A stretch of DNA of 50,807 nt from a virus (IMGVR_UViG_3300033388_007794:1-50807); one strand, 5' to 3'. Shown: positions 21,168 through 38,147, numbered from the stretch's first letter. Notes: a model not told the origin generated them from the letters alone. Made by a program: numbers and translations.

Positions 21168-22904
21168 ATGCTCCGCGCCGCAATCTACGCCCGATTCTCT
21201 TCCGACAACCAGCGTGACGAATCCATCGACGCCCAGGTGCGTCTCTGTAAGGAGTACATTAAAACTAAAGGGTATGCCTTGGTGAAAATTTACGCCGATG
21301 AAGCCATCTCGGGCCGAACAGATCAGCGTCCCCAATTTCAACAGATGCTTGCCGATGCGAAGGCCGGGCTTTTTGATGTAATCGTTACGGACAAGGTGGA
21401 CAGGTTCGCCCGGGATAAATGTGATTCCGCCGTCCACAAGAGATATTTGCGGAAGAAATGCGGCGTCCGGGTGGAGTACGCCTCTCAGCGAATCGACGAG
21501 ACACCGGAAGGAATGATGCTGGAAAGCGTCCTGGAGAGCTTAGCTGAATATTACTCTATGAATTTGGCCCGCGAGACTATGAAGGGCCTCACCGAGAACG
21601 CTCTCCGGGGCTGGCACACCGGCGGAATCCCGCCGTTCGGATTGAAAGTCGTCTCTCGAATTGTCGAAGGGAAAGAAGTTAAAACTTACGATGTTAACGA
21701 GGAAGAGGCAGCCGTCGTGCGTCGCATCTTCGAGATATACGATGTCGGCGGGACCTACGGAGATATTTGGACGGCCACGAAGGAAGATGTGATCCGCTTG
21801 CGCGGCAGGCCGCTTTCCAAGAACTCCATCCACGACATCTTGAGAAACGAGAAATACACCGGAACCTTTGTTTTCAAGAAAGGAACTAAAAAAGAACACA
21901 GGCATACACGGGCTGACGTGATTCGAGTTTCAAACGCTTTTCCGGCAATAATTTCCCGGGACCTGTGGGAAAGGGTGCAGGCCAGAATGGACAAGAGAAG
22001 GCAAAGCAACGCCGAGTGCGCCCGCGGCAGGGCAAAGGAAGTGTACCTGCTCTCCGGCCTGATTTACTGCGGCAGGTGCGGGTCCGCATTTGTCGGAAAC
22101 CCCGCCCGGGGGAAGACGAAGAAGAGATACGCTTATTACAAGTGCGGCCTGCGGGACAGATCGAAAGAATGCCGCGCAAAGACGATAAGAAAGGAAACGG
22201 TCGAGCAGTTTGTTATTGAAGATTTAAGGCGGGAAATCTTTAGCCCTGCGGCTAAGGCCAGGCTTCGGGAACGGTTTGCCGCCTACTTGGAAGAAAGGCC
22301 GAAGTCCATTGAAAAGCGAATTGCCCAAATCAAGTGGGAACTCGCAGGTGTGAACAGAGTAATAAACAATCTCGTAAATGCCATTGAGCAGGGGAAAGGC
22401 AGCGCCATCCTCATCGAACGCTTGCAAATGCAGGAGGAGCGCAGAAATATCTTGCAGGCGGAACTGCTCAACCTCGAAAGCAAGAAAGATAATCCGGTCG
22501 AGATTGACCTGGTTGATACGCTCCTCGAAAAAGCAGAAAGGGAACTTGAAAAGGTAGAGGACCCTAAGAAGCTACGTCAGCTAATCCAGCTTTTCGTCGA
22601 GCGGGTAACCGTTTATGATGATAGGGTAGAAGTCGAACTGAAAATAAAACTCCCCACCGGAGACGGTCCCGGCGGGGGTTTGGTTGCGACTGGTAGCCCC
22701 AACCTGCACTGGGTCGTAACCAAAACCGCACACGAGCGGTTAAACAAAAAGCCCCTTCCGGGGGCATTTTTTATTTGCTCTCCAGGAGCTTCCTCGCTTC
22801 CTCCGCGGGGATTGCCCACTCCAGTTGCGAGTTCATCTCCCGGGCAACCTTCTCCGCTTTTAGCTTCCCTTCCGCGCACATCTGGCGGATGCGTTGTCCG
22901 GTGA
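21168..22904 (+). CDS. int: Large serine integrase
   Basis: AIYARFSS (catalytic Ser), DEAISG, DRFAR, recombinase domain, LSGLIYCGRCG Zn ribbon, coiled coil. The C-terminal extension runs through a terminator. Confidence 0.93.
   Translation: MLRAAIYARFSSDNQRDESIDAQVRLCKEYIKTKGYALVKIYADEAISGRTDQRPQFQQMLADAKAGLFDVIVTDKVDRFARDKCDSAVHKRYLRKKCGVRVEYASQRIDETPEGMMLESVLESLAEYYSMNLARETMKGLTENALRGWHTGGIPPFGLKVVSRIVEGKEVKTYDVNEEEAAVVRRIFEIYDVGGTYGDIWTATKEDVIRLRGRPLSKNSIHDILRNEKYTGTFVFKKGTKKEHRHTRADVIRVSNAFPAIISRDLWERVQARMDKRRQSNAECARGRAKEVYLLSGLIYCGRCGSAFVGNPARGKTKKRYAYYKCGLRDRSKECRAKTIRKETVEQFVIEDLRREIFSPAAKARLRERFAAYLEERPKSIEKRIAQIKWELAGVNRVINNLVNAIEQGKGSAILIERLQMQEERRNILQAELLNLESKKDNPVEIDLVDTLLEKAERELEKVEDPKKLRQLIQLFVERVTVYDDRVEVELKIKLPTGDGPGGGLVATGSPNLHWVVTKTAHERLNKKPLPGAFFICSPGASSLPPRGLPTPVASSSPGQPSPLLASLPRTSGGCVVR
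22679..22724. other. Putative attP
   Basis: Inverted arms TTTGGTTGCGAC / GTCGTAACCAAA (11 of 12 match) around a 22-bp centre; 46 bp overall, inside the 3' part of int. Confidence 0.6.
22746..22772. terminator. Bidirectional intrinsic terminator
   Basis: AAAAA-GCCCC-TTCC-GGGGC-ATTTTTTT between convergent genes. Confidence 0.75.
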
Positions 22905-23310
22905 CATCCGCCAGGACGGAGAGCTCCTCGGCATGCACAGAGACTCCCATCTCGATTTTCGCCCGTACCCGGCACATGCGGACCATGATGCCGAGAGGGG
23001 TGTCCCACCAGGCCGCCGGGATGTCGTAGCTTGTAGCGGCCACCGGCGCCCAGAGGAGCTCGCAAAGCTCCAGGATAATCTCCTCCATCTCCTCCGGCTG
23101 CGGCCCCGTTCCCCGCGCGTAATCCCAGCACTGCTTCAACTCGGCTGCGAAGGGAAAAGGAAATTTGTCGGAACCGACGGTTACAGGCGTGGGCTGGAGC
23201 TTGAATCCGGACTGAATGCAGTCCAGGCGCATTGCCCAGAAGCGGACCTGGGAGAGCAGAATTTCCATCTCCCGGTGGAATAGTTCGTCGCTCATGTCGC
23301 GGATTTTCAA
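22771..23310 (-). CDS. Protein with C-terminal excisionase/MerR-like HTH
   Basis: AEELSVLADVTGQRIRQMCAEGKLKAEK...WAIPAEEA; AAGGAGG RBS. Confidence 0.7.
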   Translation of the reverse strand: MKIRDMSDELFHREMEILLSQVRFWAMRLDCIQSGFKLQPTPVTVGSDKFPFPFAAELKQCWDYARGTGPQPEEMEEIILELCELLWAPVAATSYDIPAAWWDTPLGIMVRMCRVRAKIEMGVSVHAEELSVLADVTGQRIRQMCAEGKLKAEKVAREMNSQLEWAIPAEEARKLLESK

Positions 23311-23805: not shown

Positions 23806-23846
23806 TCTCCCTTGCGGGGTTGCCGGGATTACGGCTCCCGGCGGGC
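23806..23846 (-). repeat. Intergenic two-hairpin repeat, copy 1
   Basis: GCCCGCCGGGAGCCGTAATCCCGGCAACCCCGCAAGGGAGA. Confidence 0.8.
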
Positions 23847-24112: not shown

Positions 24113-24154
24113 TCTCCCCTTGCGGGGTGCCGGGGATTGCGGCTCCCGGCGGGC
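24113..24154 (-). repeat. Intergenic two-hairpin repeat, copy 2
   Basis: GCCCGCCGGGAGCCGCAATCCCCGGCACCCCGCAAGGGGAGA. Confidence 0.8.
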
Positions 24155-24428: not shown

Positions 24429-24457
24429 ATTGTATTAGGTATTTCTACACATGTCAA
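24429..24457 (-). promoter_or_regulatory. Sigma-A promoter of the small-gene operon
   Basis: TTGACA-17 bp-TACAAT. Confidence 0.8.
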
Positions 24458-24510: not shown

Positions 24511-24553
24511 AAAATAAAAACCCCGGAGGCTGTTGACCTCAGCAACCTCCGGG
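24511..24553 (-). terminator. Intrinsic terminator of the type IV-B operon
   Basis: CCCGGAGG...CCTCCGGG followed by GTTTTTATTTT. Confidence 0.8.
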
Positions 24554-24575
24554 ATTCTTTTCAAAATAGCACTAT

Positions 24576-25274
24576 CTAAAATTTATCTGTGAAAACATGC
24601 CGGAACCGCCACATCAGCACGCCGTCCAGATTGCTTGCTCCCAGTTTATCGAATTCTGGGTCGAAGAAGGTTGTCAGCCTCGTTTTATCCCACCCCACCA
24701 CAGGGGCGTAGAGATCATAGACACTGGCATAAGGGAGATTGTTGCTAAAGATATGCGCCCATACGTCCTTCCAGGACCAGTCCGCTATGGGCCAGCACTC
24801 AAGGATCACGCCAATGCTCTGCTCTCTATTTATGCGTCTCCTGCGCTTCAAAGACTCCTCTCGCCGCAGGCCGACAAAGGCCAGGTCATAACCTTCTTCT
24901 TTCAACTTGGGCACTAGTTTGCCGAGATATTCCCTGCCCAGGACGTTTACCGCCCTGCGCCCAAGCCGTTTATACTCGGGGCTGGTCTCCACACGGATAT
25001 TCTTTGCGCCGATTTTTTTGGCATTATTTATAAATTCAGCTTCCAGCCAGCGCGGGATGTAGTAGGGGCCATAATCCCAGTGAAGAACCAGCACATTCGG
25101 CTTCTGTTCCATCACCAGGTGCAGAACGCAGGTAGAGTCTTTTCCGCCAGAAAAGGCTACGTAAGGTTTCTTATTTCTCTGCAACGCCTTCCTGATTATA
25201 TCCCGTGACTCCTCGACTTTTTTCTTGTGCTCATCCATTTCTGCCCATTTGCGAAGGACTTCTTTCCAACCCAT
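24576..25274 (-). CDS. cysH: CysH/PAPS-reductase-family protein (type IV-B associated)
   Basis: PP-loop AFSGGKDS, GLRREESLKRR, PIADWSWKDVW. Confidence 0.88.
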   Translation of the reverse strand: MGWKEVLRKWAEMDEHKKKVEESRDIIRKALQRNKKPYVAFSGGKDSTCVLHLVMEQKPNVLVLHWDYGPYYIPRWLEAEFINNAKKIGAKNIRVETSPEYKRLGRRAVNVLGREYLGKLVPKLKEEGYDLAFVGLRREESLKRRRRINREQSIGVILECWPIADWSWKDVWAHIFSNNLPYASVYDLYAPVVGWDKTRLTTFFDPEFDKLGASNLDGVLMWRFRHVFTDKF

Positions 25275-25385
25275 TTTTAGATCGTCCTCCCCCGAGCTTT
25301 AATCCAGTATTGGCTCCAGTTTTCTCCTGGGAATCGGTTTTGTGTAGCATTTCATATCTTTCCGGTACGGCGCGTACTGCGAACA

Positions 25386-26129
25386 CTAACACTTGAGCTT
25401 ACACCTCGCCCCCGGAGGCACGCATAGGGCGACATTGCGTGGCTCCCAATATGGCCCTTTGTATGCAATGTAAGTGGCGTCGTCATATTCTTCGCACATC
25501 GACACGGGGATCGGCCTCATAGCAATGCCGTTAGCTACTAGAGACCAATCCTCTTCCATCTCCTCAAAAACTATGTTCTTAATCGCGCCGAAGCCAATTC
25601 TATTGTCGTTCCCCAAGCTCACGAGATAACTCCTAATAAGGCGTTCTATCAGCTTCATGTCGCCATTCACGTAGAAGATAATTTCTTTCGCGGGAATATA
25701 GACTTCCTTCATGGCATATGCGCGGAAGTGGCCAGATCCAATCCTGATCTTCTTCTGCCTCAAGTTCCCCGCCCAACGTTCCTCAAAGCGTTTGTAGATC
25801 TGGGTCAGATGTATACTGTGCGGCGAGAATAAGCTCACACTGCAGTGGTATATCTCGCCCGTCTTTTTGATTGGCAACAGTCTTCTATTACCTACTTGCT
25901 CAAGGTATGGAGTCAGATTCAGCTTTTTCGGTAGCACAAAAAAATCTTGTCCAAAGGTGTCCATCATGATCAGGTGCCCCAGCAGGCCATCGAAGTTAAT
26001 CCAGGGAGTAGTAACACATACTGGAGTGCGTAACTTAAATGTGATCTTGAAAGGAATAAATCTATTCCACCGCAAGGGCGGAGCAAGGCTCGCTACGTGC
26101 TGGAAATACTTGATTTCATCCATCATCAT
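25386..26129 (-). CDS. csf3: Type IV CRISPR Cas5-like RAMP
   Basis: LRTPV...FDGLL, SGHFRAY, G-rich loop LGNDNRIGFG, RPIP, PYW. Confidence 0.8.
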   Translation of the reverse strand: MMMDEIKYFQHVASLAPPLRWNRFIPFKITFKLRTPVCVTTPWINFDGLLGHLIMMDTFGQDFFVLPKKLNLTPYLEQVGNRRLLPIKKTGEIYHCSVSLFSPHSIHLTQIYKRFEERWAGNLRQKKIRIGSGHFRAYAMKEVYIPAKEIIFYVNGDMKLIERLIRSYLVSLGNDNRIGFGAIKNIVFEEMEEDWSLVANGIAMRPIPVSMCEEYDDATYIAYKGPYWEPRNVALCVPPGARCKLKC

Positions 26130-26962
26130 AGCGTATTTTCCAGCTCCTGCAATAAAACTTTAATGTCGTCCTTCTTCTCCTTCACAAATTCCAGATACAG
26201 GCTGGTGTCGGGTCTGTTTTTGTAGTTCAGCATAACCTTTCCGTCCCCGCTTGAACTTCTGCCACCTACATATGGCATCATCTCGAATAGGTCGAGCACT
26301 CTGCCGAAGCAGCTCTTCTGCAGCTCGTCCGGGAGCTGTAATACAAACCGATGATAGAATTTCGTCCCGGGCACAAAACATTCGTAGTCAACTTTCATCT
26401 GCACCGCCTGCTCGCCTTCTTCCCTTTCCGCCCGTAGATCATCTCTGCGCGTGATGAAGCTCTGGTCGGTGAACACACGTATCGGCTGGGAAGCGCGCTG
26501 GTCGTTTTGGTATTCTGAAGGCAGATAATCTTTATATTCCGCACATATGGGCATCATGTGCTCAACGATGAGAATCCCCTGAATCATCTGGTTCCCTATG
26601 GCACAGCCGAATATGGCGGCGGGGATGATGAGGTTCCTCACTCTTTTCCTGAGTGCCAGGTCTATAACGCCTGTGGCCTCTTCCGTGCTCTCCAGGACGC
26701 CGCCGGAAAACAACGAGTGGTACACCTTTGCGTTGGTGAGTTCATAACCCACTAGGTCCAAAAAATCCTTCATCGCCAGCCTGCGGAGTTTGCCGCGGAT
26801 GCCGTTGCCGGATAGGTAAGGAATCGGGACCTCACCTACGCCGTCCACATATATCGTAATGGTCCGTAATACCGGCGTGGACCCGGTTTTCTCGTCACCA
26901 CCGTGAAAAATCGGCGTCAGCGCTATTACAGTACCCTCAATTTCGAAAAACTTTTTATCCAT
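26126..26962 (-). CDS. csf2: Type IV CRISPR Cas7-like backbone
   Basis: ALTPIFHG, PYLSGNGIRGKLRR, LFSGG, IFG, VGGRSSSGDG. Confidence 0.88.
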   Translation of the reverse strand: MDKKFFEIEGTVIALTPIFHGGDEKTGSTPVLRTITIYVDGVGEVPIPYLSGNGIRGKLRRLAMKDFLDLVGYELTNAKVYHSLFSGGVLESTEEATGVIDLALRKRVRNLIIPAAIFGCAIGNQMIQGILIVEHMMPICAEYKDYLPSEYQNDQRASQPIRVFTDQSFITRRDDLRAEREEGEQAVQMKVDYECFVPGTKFYHRFVLQLPDELQKSCFGRVLDLFEMMPYVGGRSSSGDGKVMLNYKNRPDTSLYLEFVKEKKDDIKVLLQELENTL

Positions 26963-27374
26963 CCGTCAATACCTCCTCTAAGTTTGAAGGAGCCAACTCA
27001 GAATTATCCTGCTGGCGCTTAGCGGCACGTTTTCTCTCGTCTCTTATCTCCTTTGCCCGCATGATCGCCAACATGGACATAGGGATGTGCTCAGTATACA
27101 GCTTGTTCAGCACTTCTCTCTCGTGCGGGCGCAACTCCTGGATCAACTCCAGCGCTTCCGCAGGCAGAGATTGAAGCCCGAAGTAGTTTGCTAGCTTACT
27201 CACAGCTTCGTATAGCGTAGCTCTACGACTGGCAGCCCTCACGCGATGGTTGAAGATGTCGTGAGGGTTCTTGCTGGTCCGCATCTTGCTCCAGTCGACT
27301 GCGTTGTAGATTATGGCCAGTAGTTTGACGATCTGCTTTTCCCTCTGTTCGCTATCTGCGTGTGACATCAACAA
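26955..27374 (-). CDS. cas11: Type IV-B small subunit (Cas11-like)
   Basis: 139-aa helical protein between csf1 and csf2, the IV-B gene order. Confidence 0.65.
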   Translation of the reverse strand: MLMSHADSEQREKQIVKLLAIIYNAVDWSKMRTSKNPHDIFNHRVRAASRRATLYEAVSKLANYFGLQSLPAEALELIQELRPHEREVLNKLYTEHIPMSMLAIMRAKEIRDERKRAAKRQQDNSELAPSNLEEVLTDG

Positions 27375-27984
27375 TCACCTCCCACAGGGGATCCCCCTTG
27401 TATTTTGCCAGTTCCCGCAAAAAGTCCTGGTGCCCCTGCTGGAACGCCTTCTGCCAGGTCTTAGGTTTGAATTCCCCGGCAAGCAGTTCCGTTTTTCTGA
27501 TGCCGAGTTCCAATGCTCTAGCCACTTTGCTTGTGTATGCTTCCGCCTTATCGCGCTTAAACAGTATGGGCACATCGTACTTTTCGTGGGAGAAGAAGTA
27601 GCGGTTGGGATTGCAGGCTATGCGGTTCAGGCAGGTGAGCCAGGTCTGGCGCTGGCCTTGCTTGGCGATATGGATAAAGAACGGTGGCTCAGGTGGGTCA
27701 AATAAGACATCTGAGGCTTCGTCGTTTTTGAACGTTCGGAAGCCAGCAGGTGAGGCTATCCACGACCGTTTGCGGAAGGTCTGGTCGGAGAACAGAAAAG
27801 CGCACTCAGGGCACATGCAGTTGCCTGCGTACAGGTAGCTCCAGCCGGTGAAGTTGCCGGAGACGCATTTCTTAACCGGAAGCCCGCGCTCTGTTTCCCG
27901 GCAACATACAACGCATACTCCGGCTGTTTCCCCTTCGACCACACTCTTCTTTGTAGCAGTCAATAAAAGCTCGCCCAGATTCAA
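27352..27984 (-). CDS. csf1: Type IV CRISPR large subunit (Cas8-like)
   Basis: CVVC...SGNFTGW...CPEC Zn finger and PPEPPF motif; first gene of the operon. Confidence 0.78.
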   Translation of the reverse strand: MNLGELLLTATKKSVVEGETAGVCVVCCRETERGLPVKKCVSGNFTGWSYLYAGNCMCPECAFLFSDQTFRKRSWIASPAGFRTFKNDEASDVLFDPPEPPFFIHIAKQGQRQTWLTCLNRIACNPNRYFFSHEKYDVPILFKRDKAEAYTSKVARALELGIRKTELLAGEFKPKTWQKAFQQGHQDFLRELAKYKGDPLWEVIVDVTRR

Positions 27985-28039
27985 GTTTCCATCCCTCTTA
28001 AAACCCTCTTAAAAAAAGTTTTCCTATTTCTTATAGATA

Positions 28040-28068
28040 ATTATAACTCTCTCAGGTTCAATAGTCAA
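28040..28068 (-). promoter_or_regulatory. Sigma-A promoter of the type IV-B operon
   Basis: TTGACT-17 bp-TATAAT. Confidence 0.8.
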
Positions 28069-28090
28069 GCCTCAAAAAAACAATACAAAT

Positions 28091-28118
28091 AAAAAAGCCC
28101 TGCTCAAAAGAGCAGGGC
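28091..28118 (-). terminator. Intrinsic terminator ending the late/lysis operon
   Basis: GCCCTGCTC-TTTT-GAGCAGGGC-TTTTTT. Confidence 0.85.
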
Positions 28119-28180
28119 CTCATAACGCCCGCCGTTCGCAACGGCAGCCTAAGTCTACCGGAATGGCGAGGGCATGATAA

Positions 28181-28369
28181 CTATTTTTCCTTTTTCCCAA
28201 ACGTTTGTGGCATCTTCTTGCCGATAAAGAAGGTCAAAATTGCAAAGAACCATGACTTCATGTCTGCATCTAATTGCATGTCCATGAAATACGCTACGAT
28301 GATTGCCCCCAGAATAATCAACCCAAAACCTACCGCCACAATGTCCACAAAATCGGCGTCCTTTAACAT
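28181..28369 (-). CDS. Putative holin
   Basis: Two hydrophobic segments, basic C-terminus, end of the lysis cassette. Confidence 0.6.
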   Translation of the reverse strand: MLKDADFVDIVAVGFGLIILGAIIVAYFMDMQLDADMKSWFFAILTFFIGKKMPQTFGKKEK

Positions 28370-28482
28370 TCACTTTCACCCACCTTTCTTTTGCGTTTTA
28401 AGCCACGAAAATCACCGGCCTAATACAAAACCATTACCCCACAAAGAACTCCCTCTTAAAATCGAATCTAGCAATTCTGGGG

Positions 28483-29574
28483 CTAATTCGGCCTAATCAG
28501 CCTGGCTTGCCTGCCTTCCCATTTGACCAGGTAGCCCATATTTCCGCCGACGAAGCGGACAGGGACGAGCATTCGACTCTTTTCGGAAATTCTGGCAGGT
28601 TCGTCCATCAAGATTTCCCTGCCATCAACGTCTGCAAGGACGCTGTCAGGGCGCAGGATAATCTCCTTTGCCTGCCTCGGAACTACGGCGTCTGTAGAAG
28701 TCCATGATTCAAAAAAATACCAGCAGACGTCTCCGCCACCGGTCGGGTCGAAATGCGTCAACACGAACTCGTAAGGCAAGTAGGCGTAGCCTCCCTGCCC
28801 CCACTGCGTTCCCCAGGAATTCCGCAGAATGAACGCGTGCTTACTGTCGTCATAGCCGACCAGGGCGACGGCGTGCCCTCCAAGAATGCGTCCCCGGGGA
28901 ATCGGGATGACATAATCCGGAGTTTTAACGTCGAAGAAGTTTTCGCAGACAAGCAAAGCTCCGACGATGGGGCCTTCCCGACTGATTGCTTCTTTCATCA
29001 ATTGGACGGCCCTTTGTCGCTGCTCTGGTGTATCTGTCGGATCTGCCAGCTTTGCGTAGGAAGCTATCACGTAATCTTCGGCGGCCTCGTGGTGAAAAGA
29101 CCTCACTTCGGGAACCTTCGGAGCGGATAGACTCAGCAGTTCTGAATAAGGCAAGCAATCCTCCGAACACACGCCATAATCTTTGAGAACCTTGTACGCG
29201 ACTCTCAAATACGTCCCTTCGCGGTCGGGTATTCCATCTTTCTTTTTGCACATGGCGTAGAGGTAAGCCGCGGACAGCCCGTTTGCCGGGAAGTCTCCTT
29301 GCGAGATTTCCTCGAAGGCTTTGTCCGACCAGGCAACAGCGCACGCCGCGCACGAGCCTCTACTACCCTGGTTGAAGACAGGCGGCAGGTTCGGCCTGTA
29401 ATCAACCTTGTCTGGTAGTGGCGTTTCGGGAGCGCGCGCCTGCAAAACGCGCTCGTACAGGAAGTCCCGCTTGTCCGGCGGGCTGGGCTGACAGGGCAAC
29501 AAAAAATCCCCGTACTGTTGCGGGGATTCTTCTACCGTTTTTCGCAAATTAAGATAATTTTCAAGCTCAATCAA
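28483..29574 (-). CDS. Papain-family (C1) cysteine peptidase with C-terminal copper-amine-oxidase-N-like domain
   Basis: NQGSRGSCAACA, GGHAVALVGY, RNSWG; C-terminal SRMLVPVRFVGGNMGYLVKW. Confidence 0.85.
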   Translation of the reverse strand: MIELENYLNLRKTVEESPQQYGDFLLPCQPSPPDKRDFLYERVLQARAPETPLPDKVDYRPNLPPVFNQGSRGSCAACAVAWSDKAFEEISQGDFPANGLSAAYLYAMCKKKDGIPDREGTYLRVAYKVLKDYGVCSEDCLPYSELLSLSAPKVPEVRSFHHEAAEDYVIASYAKLADPTDTPEQRQRAVQLMKEAISREGPIVGALLVCENFFDVKTPDYVIPIPRGRILGGHAVALVGYDDSKHAFILRNSWGTQWGQGGYAYLPYEFVLTHFDPTGGGDVCWYFFESWTSTDAVVPRQAKEIILRPDSVLADVDGREILMDEPARISEKSRMLVPVRFVGGNMGYLVKWEGRQARLIRPN

Positions 29575-30364
29575 TTCTTCTCTTCCCCTCCACTCTATCT
29601 AGTACCCGGTTGATTACCGTTGCAAACTCGCCCCACTGCACAAGCACGCTCGGCTGCCGGGGCGTGTTGATAATGCCGCGCTGGAGCAGGCGGTCGATTT
29701 CCTCTTGAGGATTCCACACGCGCTTCCGCTCCAGGTTCAAAAACACGGCAATGCCTTCGGCAACCTTGCCTGTGAACTCGTCCACAAACGCCCCGTCCCG
29801 CAGTAAAGCAACATCCCTTGCGCTATTCACGAAGCCGCACTCAAGCAAAACGGCAGGCGCAAGAGTGTTGGCAAGCACATAATACCTTGCGAATTTGTGG
29901 CCTCTGTCTTTGAATTGCACTTCGACCTCCTCGTCCCGCAGGTTCTCCACACCGTCAATTACGACTTCCTCAGCCTCGCTTAACGCTGGTGTGATGTGGT
30001 GGTACGCCATCAGGAAAGGCGTAATTGCCTTGTGGATTTCCTGCTGCAATACCCTTGCGCGGTTGGCGTTAGGAAGGACGAAACTCTCAAAGCCGTTTGC
30101 GCCGGCGGGACCGTCATTGATGTGGAAGCTCACGAAGCAGTCGGCACCAGCGCGGTTGGCGATGGAGCATCTGTCGGCCAGGGTAACATAGGAGTCGCTG
30201 ATTCGCGTCATTACAACAGAAACACCCTGATAGTTCCGCACCAGGGCGTCCTGAGTTTTCAGGGCCAGCTTCAAGGCGTATTTTTTCTCGACGATAAAGC
30301 CACACGCGCCTGGGTCGCGGCCCCCGTGTCCGGCGTCTATCGCGACGCAAGAGTTAACGGCCAT
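29567..30364 (-). CDS. Endolysin, N-acetylmuramoyl-L-alanine amidase (Amidase_3)
   Basis: IDAGHGGRDPGA, EK, SFHIN, PAVLLECGFV. Confidence 0.92.
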   Translation of the reverse strand: MAVNSCVAIDAGHGGRDPGACGFIVEKKYALKLALKTQDALVRNYQGVSVVMTRISDSYVTLADRCSIANRAGADCFVSFHINDGPAGANGFESFVLPNANRARVLQQEIHKAITPFLMAYHHITPALSEAEEVVIDGVENLRDEEVEVQFKDRGHKFARYYVLANTLAPAVLLECGFVNSARDVALLRDGAFVDEFTGKVAEGIAVFLNLERKRVWNPQEEIDRLLQRGIINTPRQPSVLVQWGEFATVINRVLDRVEGKRRID

Positions 30365-30378
30365 TTAAACCACTTCCT

Positions 30379-30594
30379 TCACTTAAATAGCTGCCCGCCT
30401 AGCAACCCTAAAAGGCAGGTGAGAGCCGCAAACAAAAAGCTCGCCCAGTTGGGCAAGCGGTTTGCGATTCTATCCAGTTTCTTGTATAGTTCTTTGAACT
30501 CCTCCCGATTTTCCTCCACGTGGCCGTTGAAGTCTTTCCTGAGACGGCAGATCTGCTCGCCGTGCTTGGCGAGTTCGATTTCGGTTGTGGACAA
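30379..30594 (-). CDS. XhlA-like/holin-like membrane protein
   Basis: Coiled coil plus C-terminal TM segment, directly upstream of the amidase. Confidence 0.6.
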   Translation of the reverse strand: MSTTEIELAKHGEQICRLRKDFNGHVEENREEFKELYKKLDRIANRLPNWASFLFAALTCLLGLLGGQLFK

Positions 30595-30706
30595 TGGCTC
30601 CCACCTCCCAGAAAATTAAAACCGCCGGAAAGGCGGACGTTGCATAATTTACTGGACAAAAATTCCATGGTAAAATGGTTAAAACTTATTAAGAGGAGGT
30701 CTCTTT

Positions 30707-31384
30707 ATGAAGCGTTTCTCTGTTGGCCTACTTTCTGGCTTGATGATCGGCCTGCTACTGGCTACCACCACCTTTGCTTTTGCTTCCCAACCCATAAAGC
30801 TTGTCGTCAACGGCAAGGAGATAGTCTGTGACTCGCTAGCATTCATTAAAGACGGTCGGACGTTCGTTCCAATACGATTTGTGGCTGAGGCACTGGGAGC
30901 AAAGGTGGAGTGGGATGGCGCAACAAATAGTGTAGTTATTACTACAGCTGAAAAAATAAGTTCTCCACTAGGAGGGAGTCCTATGACTTATTCTATTGGT
31001 GAGAGTATACAATTAGATGAGATTAAAGTTGTCGTGCATAACGTAGACTATCTTACCTATCCATCTGGCGAGAAAAGACATTGGGTGATGACCAGAGATG
31101 ACTACCGGATGTGCCTCTTAGATCTGGAATACACGAATATTACAGACGAAGCCATATACCTTTATAGATACTTACCTTTTCCGCTTGACGAGTCGGGAAA
31201 AGTCATCGTCGCTCCGCGTAATGTAGTTAGGGGCTTCGCTCCCGAAGAAAATTTTGATGCTATACCTCGTATCCTGGCTCCAGGAGAAAGCACAAGGTTT
31301 AAATTCGACATCGGTATACCCATCGATAGGGTGCCGTTAAAGGCCATCAGAATAGACAAAGCGGTAATTTCGCTTCTTCAATAG
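30707..31384 (+). CDS. Secreted copper-amine-oxidase-N (stalk) domain protein; moron
   Basis: Signal peptide, GRTFVPIRFVAEALGAKVEWD; opposite strand to the late operon; candidate TTTACT-17-TAAAAT promoter upstream. Confidence 0.85.
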   Translation: MKRFSVGLLSGLMIGLLLATTTFAFASQPIKLVVNGKEIVCDSLAFIKDGRTFVPIRFVAEALGAKVEWDGATNSVVITTAEKISSPLGGSPMTYSIGESIQLDEIKVVVHNVDYLTYPSGEKRHWVMTRDDYRMCLLDLEYTNITDEAIYLYRYLPFPLDESGKVIVAPRNVVRGFAPEENFDAIPRILAPGESTRFKFDIGIPIDRVPLKAIRIDKAVISLLQ

Positions 31385-33198
31385 TCCCCACCGCCCCTGC
31401 TTTGGACGAAAAGTTGAATAACCACATTTGCAACGATGCGCCCGAGATTATCGGGCGTTATCGTTATTTCATGCCAGGTGCCCCGGGTTATCTTGCCTTC
31501 TCCGTCTTTAGCAAGATAGGGGACAATATCGATGTCAGTTTCGCTCAGGCTAAGCCCCGGCACCTCATTTCCGTCAACTTTAACTGTTACTGCCGTCGGG
31601 GAGGGACCAAGATAAATGCCATAGTCGATTTCATGGGTATGGTCAGGCAACTGTATCTGGTGTACGTGTGTGCCACTACTATCTGCGGTATATATATCGA
31701 GATTATACGCACCACTCCAGTCTTCATTAATGCCTATTGTTCCCCAAGTTTCATTGCCTGGAGTCGGGTCGATCAACGCTCTAAATGTTGTCAACCAAGA
31801 GGTTTGATATAAGTGATCGTGAGGTGGATCACCGGCTGTACCCGTATAATCCGTGTAATTTGCGCTATCTCCTTCGAGTTCAAAAACCCTGTGACGGTGG
31901 TCGCCGCCGCCCTCTGTAGTTTCCAGAGATGCTCCTCCTGCCTTTGTTGCTTTAGAGTAAGCTCTAAACTGCCCTGTTTCGTAACTGAGTAGCACCTTAT
32001 TTATCCGCACCGTTTCTTCCGGAATATAAAACCTTATCACCGCCGGATTATCTGGGTCGCAGTTGTCCGCGAAATCGTGGCTGTCTAGATTAGTAGCGCC
32101 CTGGGCGTATACTTCATTTATGCGGGTCCTGTCAGCTAACTCCGCAATACTGCTGGCAATATCCTCTGGCTGGTTGGCGATTTCAAGCCGTATGTCTCCA
32201 GGAGCACCGGTCACGTCAGACTTGGAGATGCCCACTACTCGACTGGTGAAATCAATGCCTAGTTCTTCATCTATCACCCCCACCTGAGCTCCAAGTTGAA
32301 ACTTATCAATCAGATCCCTGGTTAACTGGTACAAATCAGCAGCTTCAACCGAATAAGTTACCCTGGGTATCTTCAATTTCTCCAGCATAGCCCTGGCTGT
32401 CTCATACAAGGTCTCCGCATGCTCATACCTGCGGTCTACCCACACCCGGGAGATAATTCCATACTGTGCCTGCGTATCAGTGTCAATGTAAGGCTGGCCG
32501 GTGGGGTTGACTTCCTCGATTGTAAGTTGGTTGACCCCTTCGCCGTAGCCCAGAGCATAGAGTCTGGTGCAGAGATGGGTCGGGTCTTCTTCCTTGGTTA
32601 CGCCACGGAGGTTTTTCCTGTAGCGGATTTGCGGTCCAGGTTCGTTGCTGGCGGCCAGGAGGTTCAAAGTCCAGGGGTAACTGGTTGTGTCCCACGTCCA
32701 CATATAGTCTTCAACGAATGGCTTCGGCACGGCAAACAAGGCCGCCAGTAAGTTCTCATTCTCGAACTTGTACATAAATTGCTTGCTGAATTCCACCGTG
32801 CCGAGTTGCCAACGGGTCGTGGTCTGGGCGTTCAGAATGTACTGGAGGATGCCGGCGGTGTAAATTCCGGTGCCGCCAATTTGGTGATACCGAAAGAGCA
32901 CGTCATCAAGTAAGGTAGCCAAGACGTGCTCAAGCTGATATGTTATCGTTTTGCCGTCCTCGCTTCGCATCGTCTTGATCGGGATGATGCGGAAGAGGTC
33001 AACCCGCTCGTTACCGTCAAAGATTTCAACAAAACGCAAAGGTTGGCATTCGGTATTTTTCGGGTCGTCTGCTGGCAAAGAGAAACGGGCCGTCCAAAGT
33101 TCGTTGAGATGCTTTTCGTAACCAATATTGAAAGCGTTTTCAAGGTATGCAACCTTATTCATATTCAGGTCATATACAACTACATACACGCCTCTCAT
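31378..33198 (-). CDS. Tail tip / Tal-like minor structural protein (prophage tail endopeptidase family)
   Basis: IRYRKNL, TRLYALGYGEG, GATN..SHDFADNCD; start re-called at ATG 33198. Confidence 0.82.
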   Translation of the reverse strand: MRGVYVVVYDLNMNKVAYLENAFNIGYEKHLNELWTARFSLPADDPKNTECQPLRFVEIFDGNERVDLFRIIPIKTMRSEDGKTITYQLEHVLATLLDDVLFRYHQIGGTGIYTAGILQYILNAQTTTRWQLGTVEFSKQFMYKFENENLLAALFAVPKPFVEDYMWTWDTTSYPWTLNLLAASNEPGPQIRYRKNLRGVTKEEDPTHLCTRLYALGYGEGVNQLTIEEVNPTGQPYIDTDTQAQYGIISRVWVDRRYEHAETLYETARAMLEKLKIPRVTYSVEAADLYQLTRDLIDKFQLGAQVGVIDEELGIDFTSRVVGISKSDVTGAPGDIRLEIANQPEDIASSIAELADRTRINEVYAQGATNLDSHDFADNCDPDNPAVIRFYIPEETVRINKVLLSYETGQFRAYSKATKAGGASLETTEGGGDHRHRVFELEGDSANYTDYTGTAGDPPHDHLYQTSWLTTFRALIDPTPGNETWGTIGINEDWSGAYNLDIYTADSSGTHVHQIQLPDHTHEIDYGIYLGPSPTAVTVKVDGNEVPGLSLSETDIDIVPYLAKDGEGKITRGTWHEITITPDNLGRIVANVVIQLFVQSRGGGDY

Positions 33199-33526
33199 TA
33201 CAACCACCGGTCCTTAAACATAAATCTCACCCAAACGTCTCGAGAGGTCTCTGTATTCTCTAAATAATAGTGTTCTCACCAGAGAGAAGAGCGAAAAAGC
33301 CTCCTTCGATGAAATGTAGTACATTTTGACCATTTGTTTTGCGGTCATTTTCTCAATATCAATTACAATCTCGTCTCCAGGGAAGAGGTTGCTCTGATAT
33401 TGCACAAGCAAGGGCGGTCTCCGGTTCACCACGTCGCGCTCCTCGGCTTCCCGGACGTTACCGCGCTTCTACTGACCGCCCTTTTGTCTTAACAGGATTT
33501 GTAAAAGTTCATCTCTGCTTAGACAT
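33198..33526 (-). pseudogene. Degraded distal-tail (Dit C-terminal-like) gene
   Basis: AAGGAGG RBS and ATG followed by an early stop. Fragments across frames: LFPGDEIVIDIEKMTAK / NGQNVLHFIEGGFFALLSGENTII / TETSRDVWVRFMFKDRWL. Confidence 0.7.
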
Positions 33527-33575
33527 TATTTTGCCTCCTTCTTTGTTGCGCGTAAAAGTTCTACTATGCATTACA

Positions 33576-35048
33576 TTAAGTTTGGGTTCCTACTACAACT
33601 CCATCAGTGTCACTTGTAGGTGCTCCATCTTTAATTCTGAGATTCCCTGCACTATCTACCCATATATGATAATTACCTAACATTAAGTGGCCTGTGTTCC
33701 ATGTTCCGTCACGTAACTTTAAATTATAATCATATATATGCAATTCTCTGTCTGTATGGCCAGCAATTAGTTGTACAGCTTTAGTTCCATCTGATGACTG
33801 AAACCATAATCTTCCCGCTCCGTCAATAAAAACTTTTGGATAAGACTCACCTAGTAACTGAAATTTTACAGTATCATCTGAAGCGGCTAACCAATATGTT
33901 TTCTTTTTTATATACTGGTTTTCCGAATTAGTGTGTGGGTCATTTATTATCAAATCATACAGGTTCAACCCATTTGTTTCTACAAGTTTGGGAGAACTAC
34001 TACCATGCCTGCCGGTAATGTAGCCTTGGGGGCTTCCGCTAACAATATTAACATCTGCTACAGCTCCATATCCTGTAAAATGACCAATAATATTAACTAG
34101 TGATGAAGCATTAATCTTTATACCTTCATCTGCTCCATTCGGTATATCAACAGTAATTCCAAGTAAATTAATAATTCGTCCTGCATTTATTTCCACTCCA
34201 ATTGGACAGGCTTCAAAAAAGTTGTTGTTTCCATTTACACTCCATGTTGGAGCGTTTATTTGTATCCCTACATCACAATGTTGAATTACGCTATTTTGAA
34301 TTCTGATATTGTTTTGGATAACATCTCCACTATTCCCGCTTCCGATTTTAAGCCCTATTCCATTGCCTGCATTTTGGCAATAATTTATATCAACATCATC
34401 AATTAGAATATCGTTTGCTCCTTGAAGTAAAGCAATTCCTGTCGGAACATTTTTAACAGAAACATGTCTTAAAGTGTTGCTCCAACATCTGACAGTAAAT
34501 TCGATACCAGTATCTGTGAAATTATTGACAACAACATTTTCAATTAAATTCCCACCGCTCCAGCTACCAGAATTACCTGCAATTTGAATACCTTTTGCTC
34601 CTTCTCCTTTACCATCTATAGCCAGACCTCTCAATGCGCATCCTTTTGCTGAGAAAGCATTTCCATCACCGTACTTTATAGCATAATCTGCTCCTGTATA
34701 AATAATATAACTGCTTGCTTTGTTTAGAGATGTGTCTGTTGAAGTTGTATTTACGGATGAGGCCCCTAGAAGTTGGACATTATTTTTAAGTTCAAGTGGA
34801 GAAGTAATTTTATATGTTCCTGGAGGAAAGTAGACTATTCCTCCACCGCTCTCTCCGGCAGCATCAATTGCTGCCTGTATTGCTGTCGTGTCATCTGTTT
34901 CTCCGTCGCCCTTAGCTCCGAAACCTTTAACGTTGTAAACAGGTTGCAGCACATATTTTACATAATCGTCCAAATGCGCGTATAACTCGCTAAAGTTATC
35001 GTTCAGCGGCTGACTTTCAATATAGGGACCAATTATCTGCTGAGCCAT
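33576..35048 (-). CDS. Tailspike/depolymerase, pectin-lyase beta-helix
   Basis: NVKGFGAKGDGETDDTTAIQAAID...VYFPPGTY; Asn/Ile-rich repeats; AT-rich DNA. Confidence 0.85.
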   Translation of the reverse strand: MAQQIIGPYIESQPLNDNFSELYAHLDDYVKYVLQPVYNVKGFGAKGDGETDDTTAIQAAIDAAGESGGGIVYFPPGTYKITSPLELKNNVQLLGASSVNTTSTDTSLNKASSYIIYTGADYAIKYGDGNAFSAKGCALRGLAIDGKGEGAKGIQIAGNSGSWSGGNLIENVVVNNFTDTGIEFTVRCWSNTLRHVSVKNVPTGIALLQGANDILIDDVDINYCQNAGNGIGLKIGSGNSGDVIQNNIRIQNSVIQHCDVGIQINAPTWSVNGNNNFFEACPIGVEINAGRIINLLGITVDIPNGADEGIKINASSLVNIIGHFTGYGAVADVNIVSGSPQGYITGRHGSSSPKLVETNGLNLYDLIINDPHTNSENQYIKKKTYWLAASDDTVKFQLLGESYPKVFIDGAGRLWFQSSDGTKAVQLIAGHTDRELHIYDYNLKLRDGTWNTGHLMLGNYHIWVDSAGNLRIKDGAPTSDTDGVVVGTQT

Positions 35049-35066
35049 TTTTACACTTCCTCCTCT

Positions 35067-35894
35067 CTACAAGAATAAGTGATCATAATCAATCTGAACT
35101 ACTGCATTTGGAGTGATATCGCTTTCAAACACCAGACCGTTACCCCCAACTGCTAGCTTCCAGAAGTCTCCCGATACCTTGGATATTGCATTGACTCTGT
35201 TTAGTTTTACGGTATACTTTTCCATTTCAACTTCAAGCACGTCTTCAGCGCTCAACGTTCCCGTCCAGATCAGAGCTTCACCCGTAGTTTCGTTCTTAAT
35301 AGTCGGATTGACACAAGCTCCGGTTATTGTAATTATTGGTCCGACCTTGACATGACCGTAATTCATTTGACTCATAACTTGACGCTTCACAAACCAGTTG
35401 AAGCTAGTGGGGTCTGGGTATATGAGTCCTGTATCGTATTGGAGACCCGTATCATACTGCAAGGCTTCGTCATAAGTCCCTATATCAGCACGAGCAAACG
35501 GATCATAGGCTATAAGAGGCAAGGTGAAAATCCCGACCCTGGCAATTCGTTCGATAGGCAGAGAACCAGCGTACCGCACCATATATGTTTTATCAGGTTC
35601 TAGATCAAACACCAATTCAAGATTCCTGGGTTGACCGTTATCATCGATTAGGTGGCCTGCAAGTTCCCGGACTTTTGCCTGCAAGTCAGATGCACTCACG
35701 GCGTTCACAACCACACATTCGAGACTGAATATCCTAGCACCCATATCGGCGCCAAAGTCGTATGCGCCGTGCCTGCCGGGAATCGTAACCGTTTTATCAC
35801 GGGTCTCAGGCAAAATCGGAAGTTGCGATTCTCGCCGCATTAAAAGTCCCAGCTCTTCTGCCGTCTTGCCGCCAAGCGTAAATCCATTGCTCAT
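35067..35894 (-). CDS. Distal tail protein (Dit)
   Basis: TIPGRHGAYDFG, LVFDLEPDKTY, AYDPFA; follows the tape measure gene. Confidence 0.85.
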   Translation of the reverse strand: MSNGFTLGGKTAEELGLLMRRESQLPILPETRDKTVTIPGRHGAYDFGADMGARIFSLECVVVNAVSASDLQAKVRELAGHLIDDNGQPRNLELVFDLEPDKTYMVRYAGSLPIERIARVGIFTLPLIAYDPFARADIGTYDEALQYDTGLQYDTGLIYPDPTSFNWFVKRQVMSQMNYGHVKVGPIITITGACVNPTIKNETTGEALIWTGTLSAEDVLEVEMEKYTVKLNRVNAISKVSGDFWKLAVGGNGLVFESDITPNAVVQIDYDHLFL

Positions 35895-38072
35895 TTACCC
35901 GATCACCCCCTGAGCCCTGGAGCGGGATTGAAGCAGTCCGAAAAGCTCTCGTGCAATTAGCTTAATGTCTTGATCAGAACGGACATACATATTTTCGATT
36001 TGAATTGTAAATCCGCCAGTCGTTGCAAGCTCGTGGTTTGGTATTACCTGGCTGCCTCTCGGCAAATTAACAAGCTCCGGGCCTTTCTCCCCGACGACTG
36101 CCCAGCCACCAGGGGCAAAATTAGTCCCTTGCGCGTACCAGTCCACTGACAATTTTGGCACCGGAAAAGTAATCCCCGCTATGGTTTTTTCGATAGTCCT
36201 AAAGTCGAAGTGTGGCGTAGGGATATGGATATTGCGGAAAGGCCTGGTGATGGCGTCGGCAATCCGGCTAAAAATGCTTGAAGCAGCTGACTTTAAACTT
36301 TCCCATTTGCTAGTTAGGTTTGATTTTATCTTTGCCCATTTAGTACTAAGCGCTGTTGAAATACCACCAGTTATGCCGGTTATTGTTGCTTTTATTCTTT
36401 CCCACTTTTCAGAAGCCCAGGCTTTGATAGTGTCCCAGGCTCTGCCGAGGGAGTCTTTGATTCCATTCCAGACAGCCTCGGTCTTTGATTTAATGCTGTC
36501 CCAATTAATGCTGAGTTTCTTTGCTAACAACACTGCCCAACCTGCGGGGCCGACAGCGATTAATAGGATTTCATCGCCCCACTCTTTAAAAAAGCCCTTA
36601 ATGCCGTTCCAAACATCGGATGCCGTGTCCTTTATGTCGGTCCAAATCTCAGAGAGTTTCTTTTTGATCCCATCCCAAATATCCTGAGCTTTTTTCTTGA
36701 TGTTGTCCCATATTTTCACCAGTTTAACTTTTATCTTGTCCCAGTTTTTGTATAATAAGATACCAGCAGTAACCACACCGGCAATCGCTACTATAACAAG
36801 GCCAATTGGGCTACAAATAGCTGTGAAAACTGTTCCCAGTTTAGGAATCAGCGCGATGGCAGCCCCTATTCCTTTAAGAAACGGACCAAAAACCATCATT
36901 AGTGGTCCTAACGCGGCAGCAAATCCTATTATGCCCAAAATAACCTTTTGTGTTATCGGGCTTAAATTTGCAAATCCTTCCGCCAACCTCGAAACAAAAC
37001 CGATAACAGCTTCTATTTGCGGCTGCGCTTTCTTAAATGTATCAAGCAAAACTTTTCCTAATGGTTCAAGTGCAACTTCCGCCTGGTTTTTTAGCTGTTG
37101 CATACTTTCGCCAAACGTCATAGTCTCTCTCGCTGCCGCTACTATGGTTTCAGGGCTGGCCTGTAAAGTTTTCAAAAGTTCATCCAGGTCAAACCTGCCC
37201 TCGCGTATGGCTGCTGCCATGTCGGGCCCAGCGCGGGCACCGAATATTTCTACCGCTAAAGCATTAGCTTCTGCAGCAGACCCCATATTTTTTATTTCCT
37301 CGATGGCTCGGCGCATCGCTTTTGGCGGCTCTTCTCCGGCTTTGGCGAAGTTGACAAGCCCTATCCTCAAACTACCCAGGACAAGTTCAGCGTTAACACC
37401 TTCTTTTTCCCATTTGCCCAGCATTGCAGCGGCAGTCTCAAAGTCAAACCCCATCTGCCGCAAAGGTGCGCCATACTGAACAATTGTACGTCCTAATTGA
37501 TCCACGCCAATTCCTGTTTGCTGGCTGACTTTCCAAAGATAGTCAAGTGTCTGGCCTGTCTTTGCGGCTTCAATTCCCCAGTCGCCAAAAATTCTCGTAG
37601 TTTGTGCAACTAACTGGCTGGCATCCGTACCAGCTACACGTGCAAGGTCAAGCGTTTGCTTGGTTAGATTTTGCAATGCCTGACCGGTTAAGCCGGTCCG
37701 GGTATTCAGGTCAGCCAGGGTGCTACTAACAACATCCGCCCCCTGGGGCACCTGTTTGAATACTGCCTGAAAATCTTTATTCAGCGCAGCTAACGCGTCT
37801 CCCGTTGTCCCTGTTCCCGCCCGGATTGTCTTCATAGCCTTGTCCATATCATTGGCAGCAGTAAATACAGCGGCACCTACGGCAGCAATAGGAGCAGTTA
37901 CGCGCAGGCCCATAGTTTTACCTATATCGGTCATTTTTTGCCCGGCGGTTTTAAACTTTTTACTTGTTGCCTCTAACCTATTGGCAACCTCATTCATCTT
38001 TTTATTAAATTCTTCGGTTGTTGCACCAATTTTTACAAAAATACTGCCGATTTCGGGCATCTGTACCATCAC
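35895..38072 (-). CDS. Tape measure protein
   Basis: TP901-type core (VTAPI, EIFGARAG), Trp-periodic repeats, YAQGT...VGEKGPE C-terminus. Confidence 0.92.
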   Translation of the reverse strand: MMVQMPEIGSIFVKIGATTEEFNKKMNEVANRLEATSKKFKTAGQKMTDIGKTMGLRVTAPIAAVGAAVFTAANDMDKAMKTIRAGTGTTGDALAALNKDFQAVFKQVPQGADVVSSTLADLNTRTGLTGQALQNLTKQTLDLARVAGTDASQLVAQTTRIFGDWGIEAAKTGQTLDYLWKVSQQTGIGVDQLGRTIVQYGAPLRQMGFDFETAAAMLGKWEKEGVNAELVLGSLRIGLVNFAKAGEEPPKAMRRAIEEIKNMGSAAEANALAVEIFGARAGPDMAAAIREGRFDLDELLKTLQASPETIVAAARETMTFGESMQQLKNQAEVALEPLGKVLLDTFKKAQPQIEAVIGFVSRLAEGFANLSPITQKVILGIIGFAAALGPLMMVFGPFLKGIGAAIALIPKLGTVFTAICSPIGLVIVAIAGVVTAGILLYKNWDKIKVKLVKIWDNIKKKAQDIWDGIKKKLSEIWTDIKDTASDVWNGIKGFFKEWGDEILLIAVGPAGWAVLLAKKLSINWDSIKSKTEAVWNGIKDSLGRAWDTIKAWASEKWERIKATITGITGGISTALSTKWAKIKSNLTSKWESLKSAASSIFSRIADAITRPFRNIHIPTPHFDFRTIEKTIAGITFPVPKLSVDWYAQGTNFAPGGWAVVGEKGPELVNLPRGSQVIPNHELATTGGFTIQIENMYVRSDQDIKLIARELFGLLQSRSRAQGVIG

Positions 38073-38147
38073 CTTGCTGGAAAAGAAGGAATTTTTTTCT
38101 CAACTGGCGAATTCTAACCATAAAATTATAGGAGGTGTTTAAAAATA

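Follow-up and report, generated by a model that had tools for sequence, protein, structure and literature searches.

The 50,807-nucleotide virus sequence IMGVR_UViG_3300033388_007794, referred to below as the window (the whole stretch of DNA analysed), carries at positions 24516-28121 on its minus strand what is almost certainly a complete, phage-borne type IV-B effector module of the CRISPR-Cas systems (CRISPR, short palindromic repeats that are clustered and regularly interspaced; Cas, the proteins associated with them), consisting of Csf1, Cas11, Csf2/Cas7 and Csf3/Cas5 together with the partner protein CasCysH. The cassette runs in the order terminator, sigma-70-like promoter, csf1, cas11, csf2, csf3, cysH-like gene and terminator, and its neighbouring open reading frames (ORFs) overlap by 4 to 23 nt with the sole exception of a 111-nt gap before the cysH-like ORF. 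Type IV-B is the only widespread CRISPR-Cas subtype to lack a known function, which is still called unresolved in passages of the 2025 classification (PMC12669027) and of the 2026 type IV-C paper (PMC13676074), and the compact clade to which the present cassette belongs makes its whole genetic context readable.

An initial annotation of this DNA, made by inspection of the sequence, had read a type IV-B operon of five intact ORFs and had proposed Cas hidden Markov model (HMM) typing as a check. On this check PADLOC types the four Csf/Cas genes as type IV, upholding the proposed gene set and order with E-values of 1e-42 to 2e-80, and the Pfam PAPS_reduct model recognizes the fifth gene (5.9e-18). 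The first gene, csf1 (27352..27984, minus; 210 aa, TTG start with the Shine-Dalgarno sequence AGAGGGA), encodes the small Cas8-like large subunit and is matched by Csf1_0_IV (1.1e-44) over residues 13-209. Its four zinc-ribbon Cys residues (C24, C27, C58 and C61) are invariant across 30 sequences, and HMM searches gave no match to an HD domain in Csf1, indicating that it is not a Cas10-HD protein. The next gene, cas11 (26955..27374, minus; 139 aa as listed), encodes the type IV small subunit (Cas11_0_IV, 5.4e-42). Since the HMM alignment begins at residue 3, placing residues 3-115 on profile positions 1-113 of 114, the ATG at 27368 is the likelier start than the listed one. No significant sequence match was obtained for this protein among PDB chains, its identity as Cas11 being taken from the PADLOC HMM. 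The two repeat-associated mysterious proteins (RAMPs) follow, namely the Cas7 backbone RAMP encoded by csf2 (26126..26962, minus; 278 aa; typeIV_Cas7, 1.9e-80) and the Cas5 RAMP encoded by csf3 (25386..26129, minus; 247 aa; Csf3_0_IV, 2e-59). Csf1, Csf2 and Csf3 also match their NCBIfam equivalogs at 1e-7 to 6e-16, all under the curated cut-offs (cas8u_csf1 at 1.2e-7; cas7_csf2 with 53 bits against a 130-bit cut-off); hence, the window Csf proteins are distant from the seed members of these models. A profile of 18 Csf2 relatives matches the solved Cas7c of type IV-C (11fs, 1.9e-22) and the solved Csf2 of type IV-B (7jhy, 3.9e-16). Likewise, an AlphaFold2 (AF2) model of Csf3, with a predicted local distance difference test (pLDDT) score of 85.5, retrieves as its top Foldseek matches the type IV-A complex chains 8rc2, 7xg1 and 8rc3 (E 3.5e-9 to 1.1e-8 and template modelling (TM) score 0.56-0.68 against the IV-A Csf3 chains), with type III Csm4-type chains coming next. 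The RAMP folds on which the initial annotation had staked its reading are thus supported by both the Csf2 profile matches and the Csf3 model.

Relatives were collected by means of Csf2, yielding 29 IMG/VR loci (49-86% identity) and 17 loci from species-representative genomes, designated below by L-numbers. The five-gene order is kept in 24 of the 29 viral loci and the remaining five end at contig ends; cysH is detected in 40 of the 46 loci, with five ending before its place and L036 having none detected. All five window ORFs equal in length those of 40+ relatives and are therefore intact, as had been claimed. Comparison with the three nearest relatives (L002, L004 and L031) gave proportions of nonsynonymous differences (pN) of 0.10-0.24 against saturated proportions of synonymous differences (pS) of 0.80-1.0 for every cassette gene, and all five genes are under purifying selection. 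Identity among relatives drops to 33-45% for Csf1 and Csf3 where Csf2 keeps about 55%.

The cysH-like gene (24576..25274, minus; 232 aa) encodes CasCysH, a PP-loop ATP pyrophosphatase of the 3'-phosphoadenosine 5'-phosphosulfate (PAPS) reductase fold, which scores 65.9 bits with Pfam PAPS_reduct against a cut-off of 22.5 and gives weaker HMM matches of the BrxP, DndC and QueC types. The top fold match of its AF2 model (pLDDT 91.5) is CysH (6vpu; E 2.4e-7, TM 0.57), followed by adenosine 5'-phosphosulfate (APS) reductase, the PAPS domain of FAD synthase, TtuA, LarE and CysD. With CysH and its PP-loop relatives (DndC, BrxP, IbrA, CysD, LarE and TtuA) it shares the fold and the SGGKDS PP-loop, which is invariant in 33 CasCysH sequences along with 13 further positions. 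In contrast to the CysH family, CasCysH lacks conserved catalytic, C-terminal or Fe-S Cys residues and, at about 230 aa, invariably stands alone. Neither an invariant Cys nor the C-terminal Cys motif of true reductases was found in the 33 aligned sequences, and the window protein, which ends in ...RFRHVFTDKF, is without the catalytic C-terminal Cys that marks true PAPS/APS reductases. Judging from these residues, CasCysH is a protein of the CysH fold and no sulfonucleotide reductase by function, and it probably has a non-reductase PP-loop chemistry. Passages of PMC8175902 similarly describe it as retaining nucleotide binding and ATP alpha-hydrolase/AMPylation chemistry after loss of sulfonucleotide reduction. 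A profile search of 1.84 billion representatives recovered 113 CasCysH matches at E<=1e-30, the best 150 matches spanning 88-339 aa; a fusion of CasCysH to a Csf subunit was rejected, as no case was found among the longer proteins or these best 150.

Three lines of evidence, none of them strong, suggest that CasCysH probably docks at the Csf3 end of the complex. In 25 of 27 relatives the csf3 and cysH genes overlap or are separated by at most 5 nt; in the window they stand 111 nt apart, and the intervening spacer (25275..25385, minus) is peculiar to this phage and unstructured (z +1.18). Across 30 loci, with pairs that are not independent, CasCysH distances track those of Csf3 best (r 0.81, partial 0.35). 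Finally, complex prediction scored the Csf3-CasCysH pair at 0.57, the best of three controls reaching 0.18, with runs of 0.57, 0.00 and 0.57, agreement of at least 3% of contacts and partner pLDDT of at least 74. By the calibration of the tool this is weak support, in that 58 of 80 solved complexes and two of 110 mismatched pairs attain the mark, and scores <=0.60 at the mark comprise only seven of the 80 solved complexes plus both passing mismatches.

The carrier is a temperate siphovirus-like phage. The window is the whole virus record (50,807 bp), estimated to be 99% complete, which bears out the near-complete genome supposed by the initial annotation. PHROGs matches identify a siphovirus-type structural set (terminase, portal, major head protein, tape measure and tail proteins) and an amidase endolysin, as well as a large serine integrase, a CI-like repressor, a primase-helicase, a DnaD-like loader and a RusA-type resolvase. 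They also confirm that the cassette follows the lysis genes, placing it between these and the integrase. By blastn the cassette DNA has no match among 50,697 phage records, and a search with the major capsid protein returned no names informative about the host. Upstream, the lysis region is closed by an intrinsic terminator (28094..28121, minus; 12-bp stem with 7 GC and a T-run; dG -23.3 kcal/mol, z -4.0; 0/200 shuffles fold as well) just downstream of a 62-aa ORF (28369..28181) with two hydrophobic segments. The 196-nt gap separating this ORF from csf1 contains a putative sigma-70-like promoter (28040..28068, minus; TTGACT-17 nt-TATAAT, 11/12 consensus matches). Promoter-like sites in the region number eight against 6.7 +/- 2.8 in shuffles; as their total is at shuffle level, only the position and quality of this site count. 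The cassette ends in a second intrinsic terminator (24516..24559, minus), a hairpin of 17 pairs and a T-run reaching about 24508 (dG -29.2 kcal/mol, z -4.9; 0/200 shuffles fold as well). Terminators on both sides and a candidate promoter of its own, in the form of a consensus match, accordingly agree with the initial description of the cassette as an insulated phage moron. That term would suit the window, given the putative promoter, the terminators and the position between lysis genes and integrase; it does not describe the usual state of such cassettes, the relatives being mostly embedded in operons. Downstream of the cassette lies a second, small putative promoter-driven unit (promoter 24457..24429, 11/12) with three ORFs without assigned function.

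The claimed absence of an array, cas6, helicase, effector nuclease and adaptation genes was likewise sustained by repeat, Rfam, PADLOC and PHROGs searches. No tRNA genes, tandem repeats or CRISPR-like arrays were found in the window, no Rfam family including CRISPR-DR matches it even at E<=5, and neither the window nor the 29 viral loci contain a CRISPR array or mini-array. PADLOC found no other cas genes among 60 further window ORFs, except for one weak Cas4-like match (8e-8) that falls on the recombination exonuclease at 14580-15242; at the locus no DinG/RecD helicase, Cas6, effector nuclease or adaptation gene was found, and the sole helicase of the window is the phage primase-helicase, 13 kb from the cassette. 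Conserved non-coding sequence up- or downstream of the cassette was likewise not found across the relatives. A guide RNA beside the cassette was therefore rejected, there being no array, no conserved non-coding flank, no structure in the csf3-cysH spacer and no Rfam family. Each copy of a 38-nt direct repeat (23809-23846 and 24117-24154, 89% identity) forms a double hairpin directly ahead of a small ORF's ribosome-binding site, these ORFs being part of the second unit downstream of the cassette; as a mini-array the repeat was rejected, since the copies are 308 nt apart, each precedes a ribosome-binding site and all relatives lack them. With no guide encoded beside the cassette in the window or its relatives, any RNA of the complex would have to come from elsewhere in the cell; the initial annotation had named host crRNAs or a phage RNA as its presumed source and guided CysH chemistry as a possible outcome.

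The 29 viral and 17 genome loci, compared by sequence, place the cassette in a clade that is carried mainly by phages. Its bacterial carriers include Bacillota (Caldicoprobacter algeriensis TH7C1 and a Thermoanaerobacter metagenome-assembled genome (MAG)), Chloroflexota, Ignavibacteriota/Kapaibacteria, Calditrichota, Actinomycetota and Pseudomonadota, and one Aenigmatarchaeota MAG also carries it. In a tree of Csf2 sequences, the window and L002 form a pair (support 99/96) within a group holding the Caldicoprobacter and Thermoanaerobacter copies, so that by this tree the nearest cassettes are those of thermophilic anaerobic Bacillota. The window flanks are common to no relative, and hence the cassette moves between phages. 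The start of csf1 lies at most 40 nt from an upstream same-strand ORF in 24 of 38 loci; the window is one of ten with a spacer of at least 100 nt or a divergent neighbour before csf1, and the insulated position after the lysis genes is a minority arrangement. Neighbours with replication, recombination or nuclease functions (DnaB, DnaD, RusA, NinG, exonucleases and primase) occur in ten of the 11 relatives with enough flank, a terminase follows within 4.5 kb after the cassette in five of those ten, and an endolysin lies near the cassette in L018 alone. These flanking genes, succeeded by terminase, mark the end of the early lytic module as the usual home of the cassette. An early-module position in most relatives in turn suggests a function needed during lytic growth, which narrows the hypotheses to be considered. 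Further genes stand next to some of the copies. An IbrA-like PAPS-reductase gene (phrog_2302, about 375 aa) and a ParB-like gene follow the cassette at L031:13093-14753 and L015:11110-12776, giving these two loci two PAPS-reductase-fold genes within 2 kb, and a similar IbrA-like gene appears from the sequence to start directly after cysH in L005, L006, L011, L013, L022 and L030. The Kapaibacterium copy (L047:8839-9570) has between csf1 and cas11 a 243-aa ORF whose translation contains a DPPW methyltransferase-type motif.

The cassette is not new in kind, and published locus tables may already list its clade. The background invoked in the initial annotation, namely that IV-B loci are borne by mobile genetic elements (MGEs), linked to CysH and usually array-less, agrees with passages of PMC7038947, PMC8175902 and bioRxiv 10.1101/270033, and IV-B loci with CysH on plasmids and predicted prophages have already been described (bioRxiv 10.1101/270033 and PMC7038947, in part). 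The best characterized counterpart, from a megaplasmid of Mycobacterium sp. JS623 (7JHY; PMC7937560), has the same parts (csf1, cas11, csf2, csf3 and a cysH-like gene) and is likewise array-less, devoid of Cas6 and mobile. The present carrier, in contrast, is a 51-kb temperate phage, and the window Csf2 is only distantly related to that of 7JHY (3.9e-16), its best solved relative being the type IV-C Cas7, with no significant match for Cas11. Virus-borne IV-B with a mini-array has been described in the archaeal 'Fuxiviridae', which, according to passages of PMC10848311, also have a CasCysH-clade gene next to csf3 and a host with a spacer against a cassette gene, as do hosts of the window's relatives. 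The same passages report a two-repeat mini-array, Cas4 and an archaeal host for the Fuxivirus, whereas the window has no such repeat, a weak Cas4-like match and a bacterial host. The type IV-C effector (Cas7c/Cas11c, 11fs; PMC13676074) provides the closest solved Cas7 by profile (1.9e-22) and also has Cas11; the window differs from it in having as its large subunit a 210-aa Csf1 zinc-ribbon protein and in the presence of the CysH-like gene. Type IV-A (Csf1-3, Csf5/Cas6, CasDinG and an array) shares the best Csf3 fold match and the logic of a nuclease-free ribonucleoprotein (RNP), whereas the window lacks DinG, Cas6 and an array and has Cas11 and CysH instead. What is new here is the mainly phage-borne clade itself, whose cassettes usually lie inside an early replication module without a promoter of their own; to this we add the lack of a conserved RNA gene or array, the weakly supported Csf3-CasCysH contact, a CasCysH that is unfused and has an invariant PP-loop and no conserved Cys, and the self-targeting lead presented next.

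Tolerated self-targeting in the presence of an intact CRISPR effector classically hints that the element under attack has an anti-CRISPR function. Among five host genomes carrying the cassette, Cas1 is present in all five and Cas6 in four. The isolate C. algeriensis TH7C1 encodes a full type I-B operon (8/8 genes) and an array of 298 repeats; a search of its genome for extra repeats gave 298 core matches, equalling the 298 repeats over 26322-46266, and the spacing agrees among the matches listed. Of the 296 spacers, one is identical at 37/37 positions to the resident IV-B-bearing prophage, at the start of a methyltransferase gene (L031:3188-3224), and another matches csf1 with five mismatches. 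The self-target has the 5' flank TTA, and 15 other spacers that match related viral contigs have the flanks TCA (10), CCA (2) and TTA (3). The complete Kapaibacterium MAG also has a full type I-B operon (8/8 genes), and 15 of the 526 spacers in its main array hit the resident IV-B element (L047:9128-17729), 11 perfectly, three with one mismatch and one with four. Eight of these targets fall within the cassette and seven within the primase/helicase genes next to it, TTA forms the 5' flank of 11 of the 15, and the self-matching spacers are scattered from the sixth spacer to far down the array. Escape through the protospacer-adjacent motif (PAM), as an explanation of the TTA found beside the C. 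algeriensis self-target, was withdrawn, TTA being the main flank in Kapaibacterium. Thus, two of five hosts combine an intact I-B system with perfect, PAM-flanked self-spacers, which by sequence offers a lead for an anti-CRISPR role and no proof of one. No paper linking IV-B to self-targeting spacers was found in a listing of papers or in passages of PMC8175902. Six kb downstream of the Kapaibacterium cassette, at L047:18345-18374 (plus), there is a solitary unit 25/30 identical to the host I-B repeat and enclosed by a long inverted repeat; a search of the window and the 46 loci with eight host repeats, allowing <=7 mismatches, found such a unit in L047 only, and solitary host-repeat units as a general feature were rejected.

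On this basis we tentatively propose counter-defence as the role of the cassette, a possibility that we entertain without great confidence. By analogy with the solved IV-B complex, Csf2 and Cas11 would form a polymer along an RNA about 55-60 nt long, supplied from elsewhere in the cell, Csf3 and Csf1 would cap the ends, and it is quite likely that the Csf proteins assemble into such an RNP. CasCysH would split ATP at the alpha-beta bond for chemistry of the adenylyl-transfer type. A nuclease-free Cascade look-alike of this kind might take up host crRNA-type RNAs and/or occupy their targets, so that host type I interference against the phage or prophage would be blunted, while CasCysH would act chemically on the RNA thus captured or on a bound partner. 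In its most specific form, which we consider rather doubtful, phage-borne IV-B modules would be multi-subunit anti-CRISPR devices that soak up type I CRISPR RNAs (crRNAs) or shield their targets, CasCysH chemically disabling whatever is captured. If this were true, phages and prophages would be able to persist in hosts with intact I-B and perfect, PAM-flanked spacers against them; compare the self-matching spacers of C. algeriensis TH7C1 (1) and Kapaibacterium (15). The end of the early module near the terminase is also a typical site of early anti-defence genes, and the early-module location in ten of 11 relatives, five of them just ahead of the terminase, speaks for counter-defence. As a cultured organism with a complete I-B system and a perfect prophage spacer, C. 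algeriensis TH7C1 makes the anti-CRISPR idea, already debated in print, experimentally approachable. The crRNA handle of this host is ATTGAAAC; Csf2-bound RNA bearing it would support a sponge or the hijacking of guides, and random fragments the use of RNA as a scaffold, both of which alternatives are taken up below.

Several observations weigh against the counter-defence proposal. Type I-E crRNAs expressed alongside the Mycobacterium IV-B complex were not taken up by it (PMC7937560 and PMC8175902, in part), and passages of PMC7038947 show Pinilla-Redondo et al. judging a multi-subunit anti-CRISPR unlikely. Three of the five host genomes showed no self-match against their own cassette contigs (0/43, 0/14 and 0/176 spacers from partly sampled arrays), the 1,115 spacers of the five host genomes have no match in the window, and the solitary host-repeat unit occurs in only one of 47 sequences (the window and 46 loci). 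TTA is a minority flank among the non-self matches of C. algeriensis (3/15), and a weak PAM could explain the tolerance there. One of the positive genomes is a MAG, in which the array may derive from one cell and the element from another. Self-targeting is moreover guilt by association that does not indicate the responsible gene, and the elements may hold ordinary small anti-CRISPR proteins. The Csf3-CasCysH prediction that would tie the enzyme to the complex is weak by calibration, with one run of three at 0.00. For the window itself, a counter-defence role would derive from the hosts of its relatives.

A use of borrowed guides for competition between MGEs strikes us as unlikely, though worth weighing: the Csf complex would load host crRNAs or another guide and bind matching DNA or RNA of rival phages or plasmids, which would be silenced or marked without cleavage, as by IV-A with DinG, CasCysH would be the effector, and in the present phage the outcome would be superinfection exclusion from the lysogen. 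The autonomous promoter-terminator unit beside the integrase occupies the usual place of lysogen-expressed exclusion genes, yet most relatives (24 of 38 loci being embedded) lie in lytic early operons and lack a promoter of their own, a poor fit with exclusion by a prophage. Host genomes do offer arrays from which to borrow (Cas1 in 5/5), but the same guides are already served by the host effector, and the solved complex took heterogeneous RNA rather than the crRNAs offered (PMC7937560, in part). Type IV-A sets the precedent of nuclease-free repression, and type IV systems have been associated with conflict between plasmids (PMC12669027 and PMC7038947, passages); against this, no helicase partner was found at the locus.

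That heterogeneous RNA suits a further alternative, to which we give a similarly low probability, in which the proteins would form a filament on transcripts of the phage or the host irrespective of sequence and serve modification or signalling in phage development. CasCysH would adenylylate nucleic acid or make a nucleotide signal, whereby replication, late transcription or resistance to restriction-type systems would be adjusted. The RNA in the purified Mycobacterium complex was non-CRISPR and of uniform length, about 55-60 nt (PMC7937560, in part). Against this alternative, a Cas5/Cas8-like cap whose Csf1 and Csf3 evolve fast suggests a specific ligand rather than the coating of any RNA. A PP-loop protein without Cys points to AMPylation-type chemistry, and an AMPylation/second-messenger proposal is cited in passages of PMC13676074. 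Neighbours with nucleotide chemistry are frequent (IbrA-like and ParB in L031 and L015; methyltransferases in L024 and L047), yet no target or signal-receptor gene conserved beside the cassette was found. The spread of the cassette across many phyla with differing CRISPR types would agree with this alternative as well. That the cassette is decaying or selfish cargo of no present use to the phage, as the lack of an array, a nuclease and a known phenotype and the csf3-cysH coupling broken in the window by the 111-nt spacer might suggest, is highly improbable in view of five intact ORFs that 24 of 29 viral loci retain in the same order (contig ends cutting the remaining five), pN of 0.10-0.24 against saturated pS for every gene, the invariant PP-loop and Csf1 zinc-ribbon Cys, and the 3.5 kb that the cassette takes up in a 50.8-kb genome. 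The probability remaining beyond the three functional readings, counter-defence, inter-MGE competition and RNA-scaffolded modification, we assign to functions not yet imagined.

Outside the cassette the phage genome encodes several proteins of unusual architecture. Among the head genes, a 1236-aa ORF (46447-50157, minus) is by Pfam a four-domain fusion of a SAM-methyltransferase, an ATP-dependent DNA ligase, a UDG-superfamily domain and a C-terminal XkdF-type serine protease, and this multi-enzyme protein is possibly packaged in the capsid. A 148-aa protein of the early region (8721-9167, minus) matches the BTG family (PF07742, 2.3e-17, above cut-off), a domain familiar chiefly from eukaryotic anti-proliferative proteins. 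In the lysis region a papain-family C1 peptidase fused to Cu_amine_oxidN1 (28483-29574, minus) adjoins the amidase endolysin, and a second Cu_amine_oxidN1 protein is encoded at 30707-31384 (plus). Finally, the serine-integrase ORF as predicted (21168-22904, plus) extends about 85 codons beyond its PHROG-aligned end at residue 493 as a low-complexity tail, which overlaps the putative opposite-strand ORF at 22771-23310 (minus) by 134 nt.

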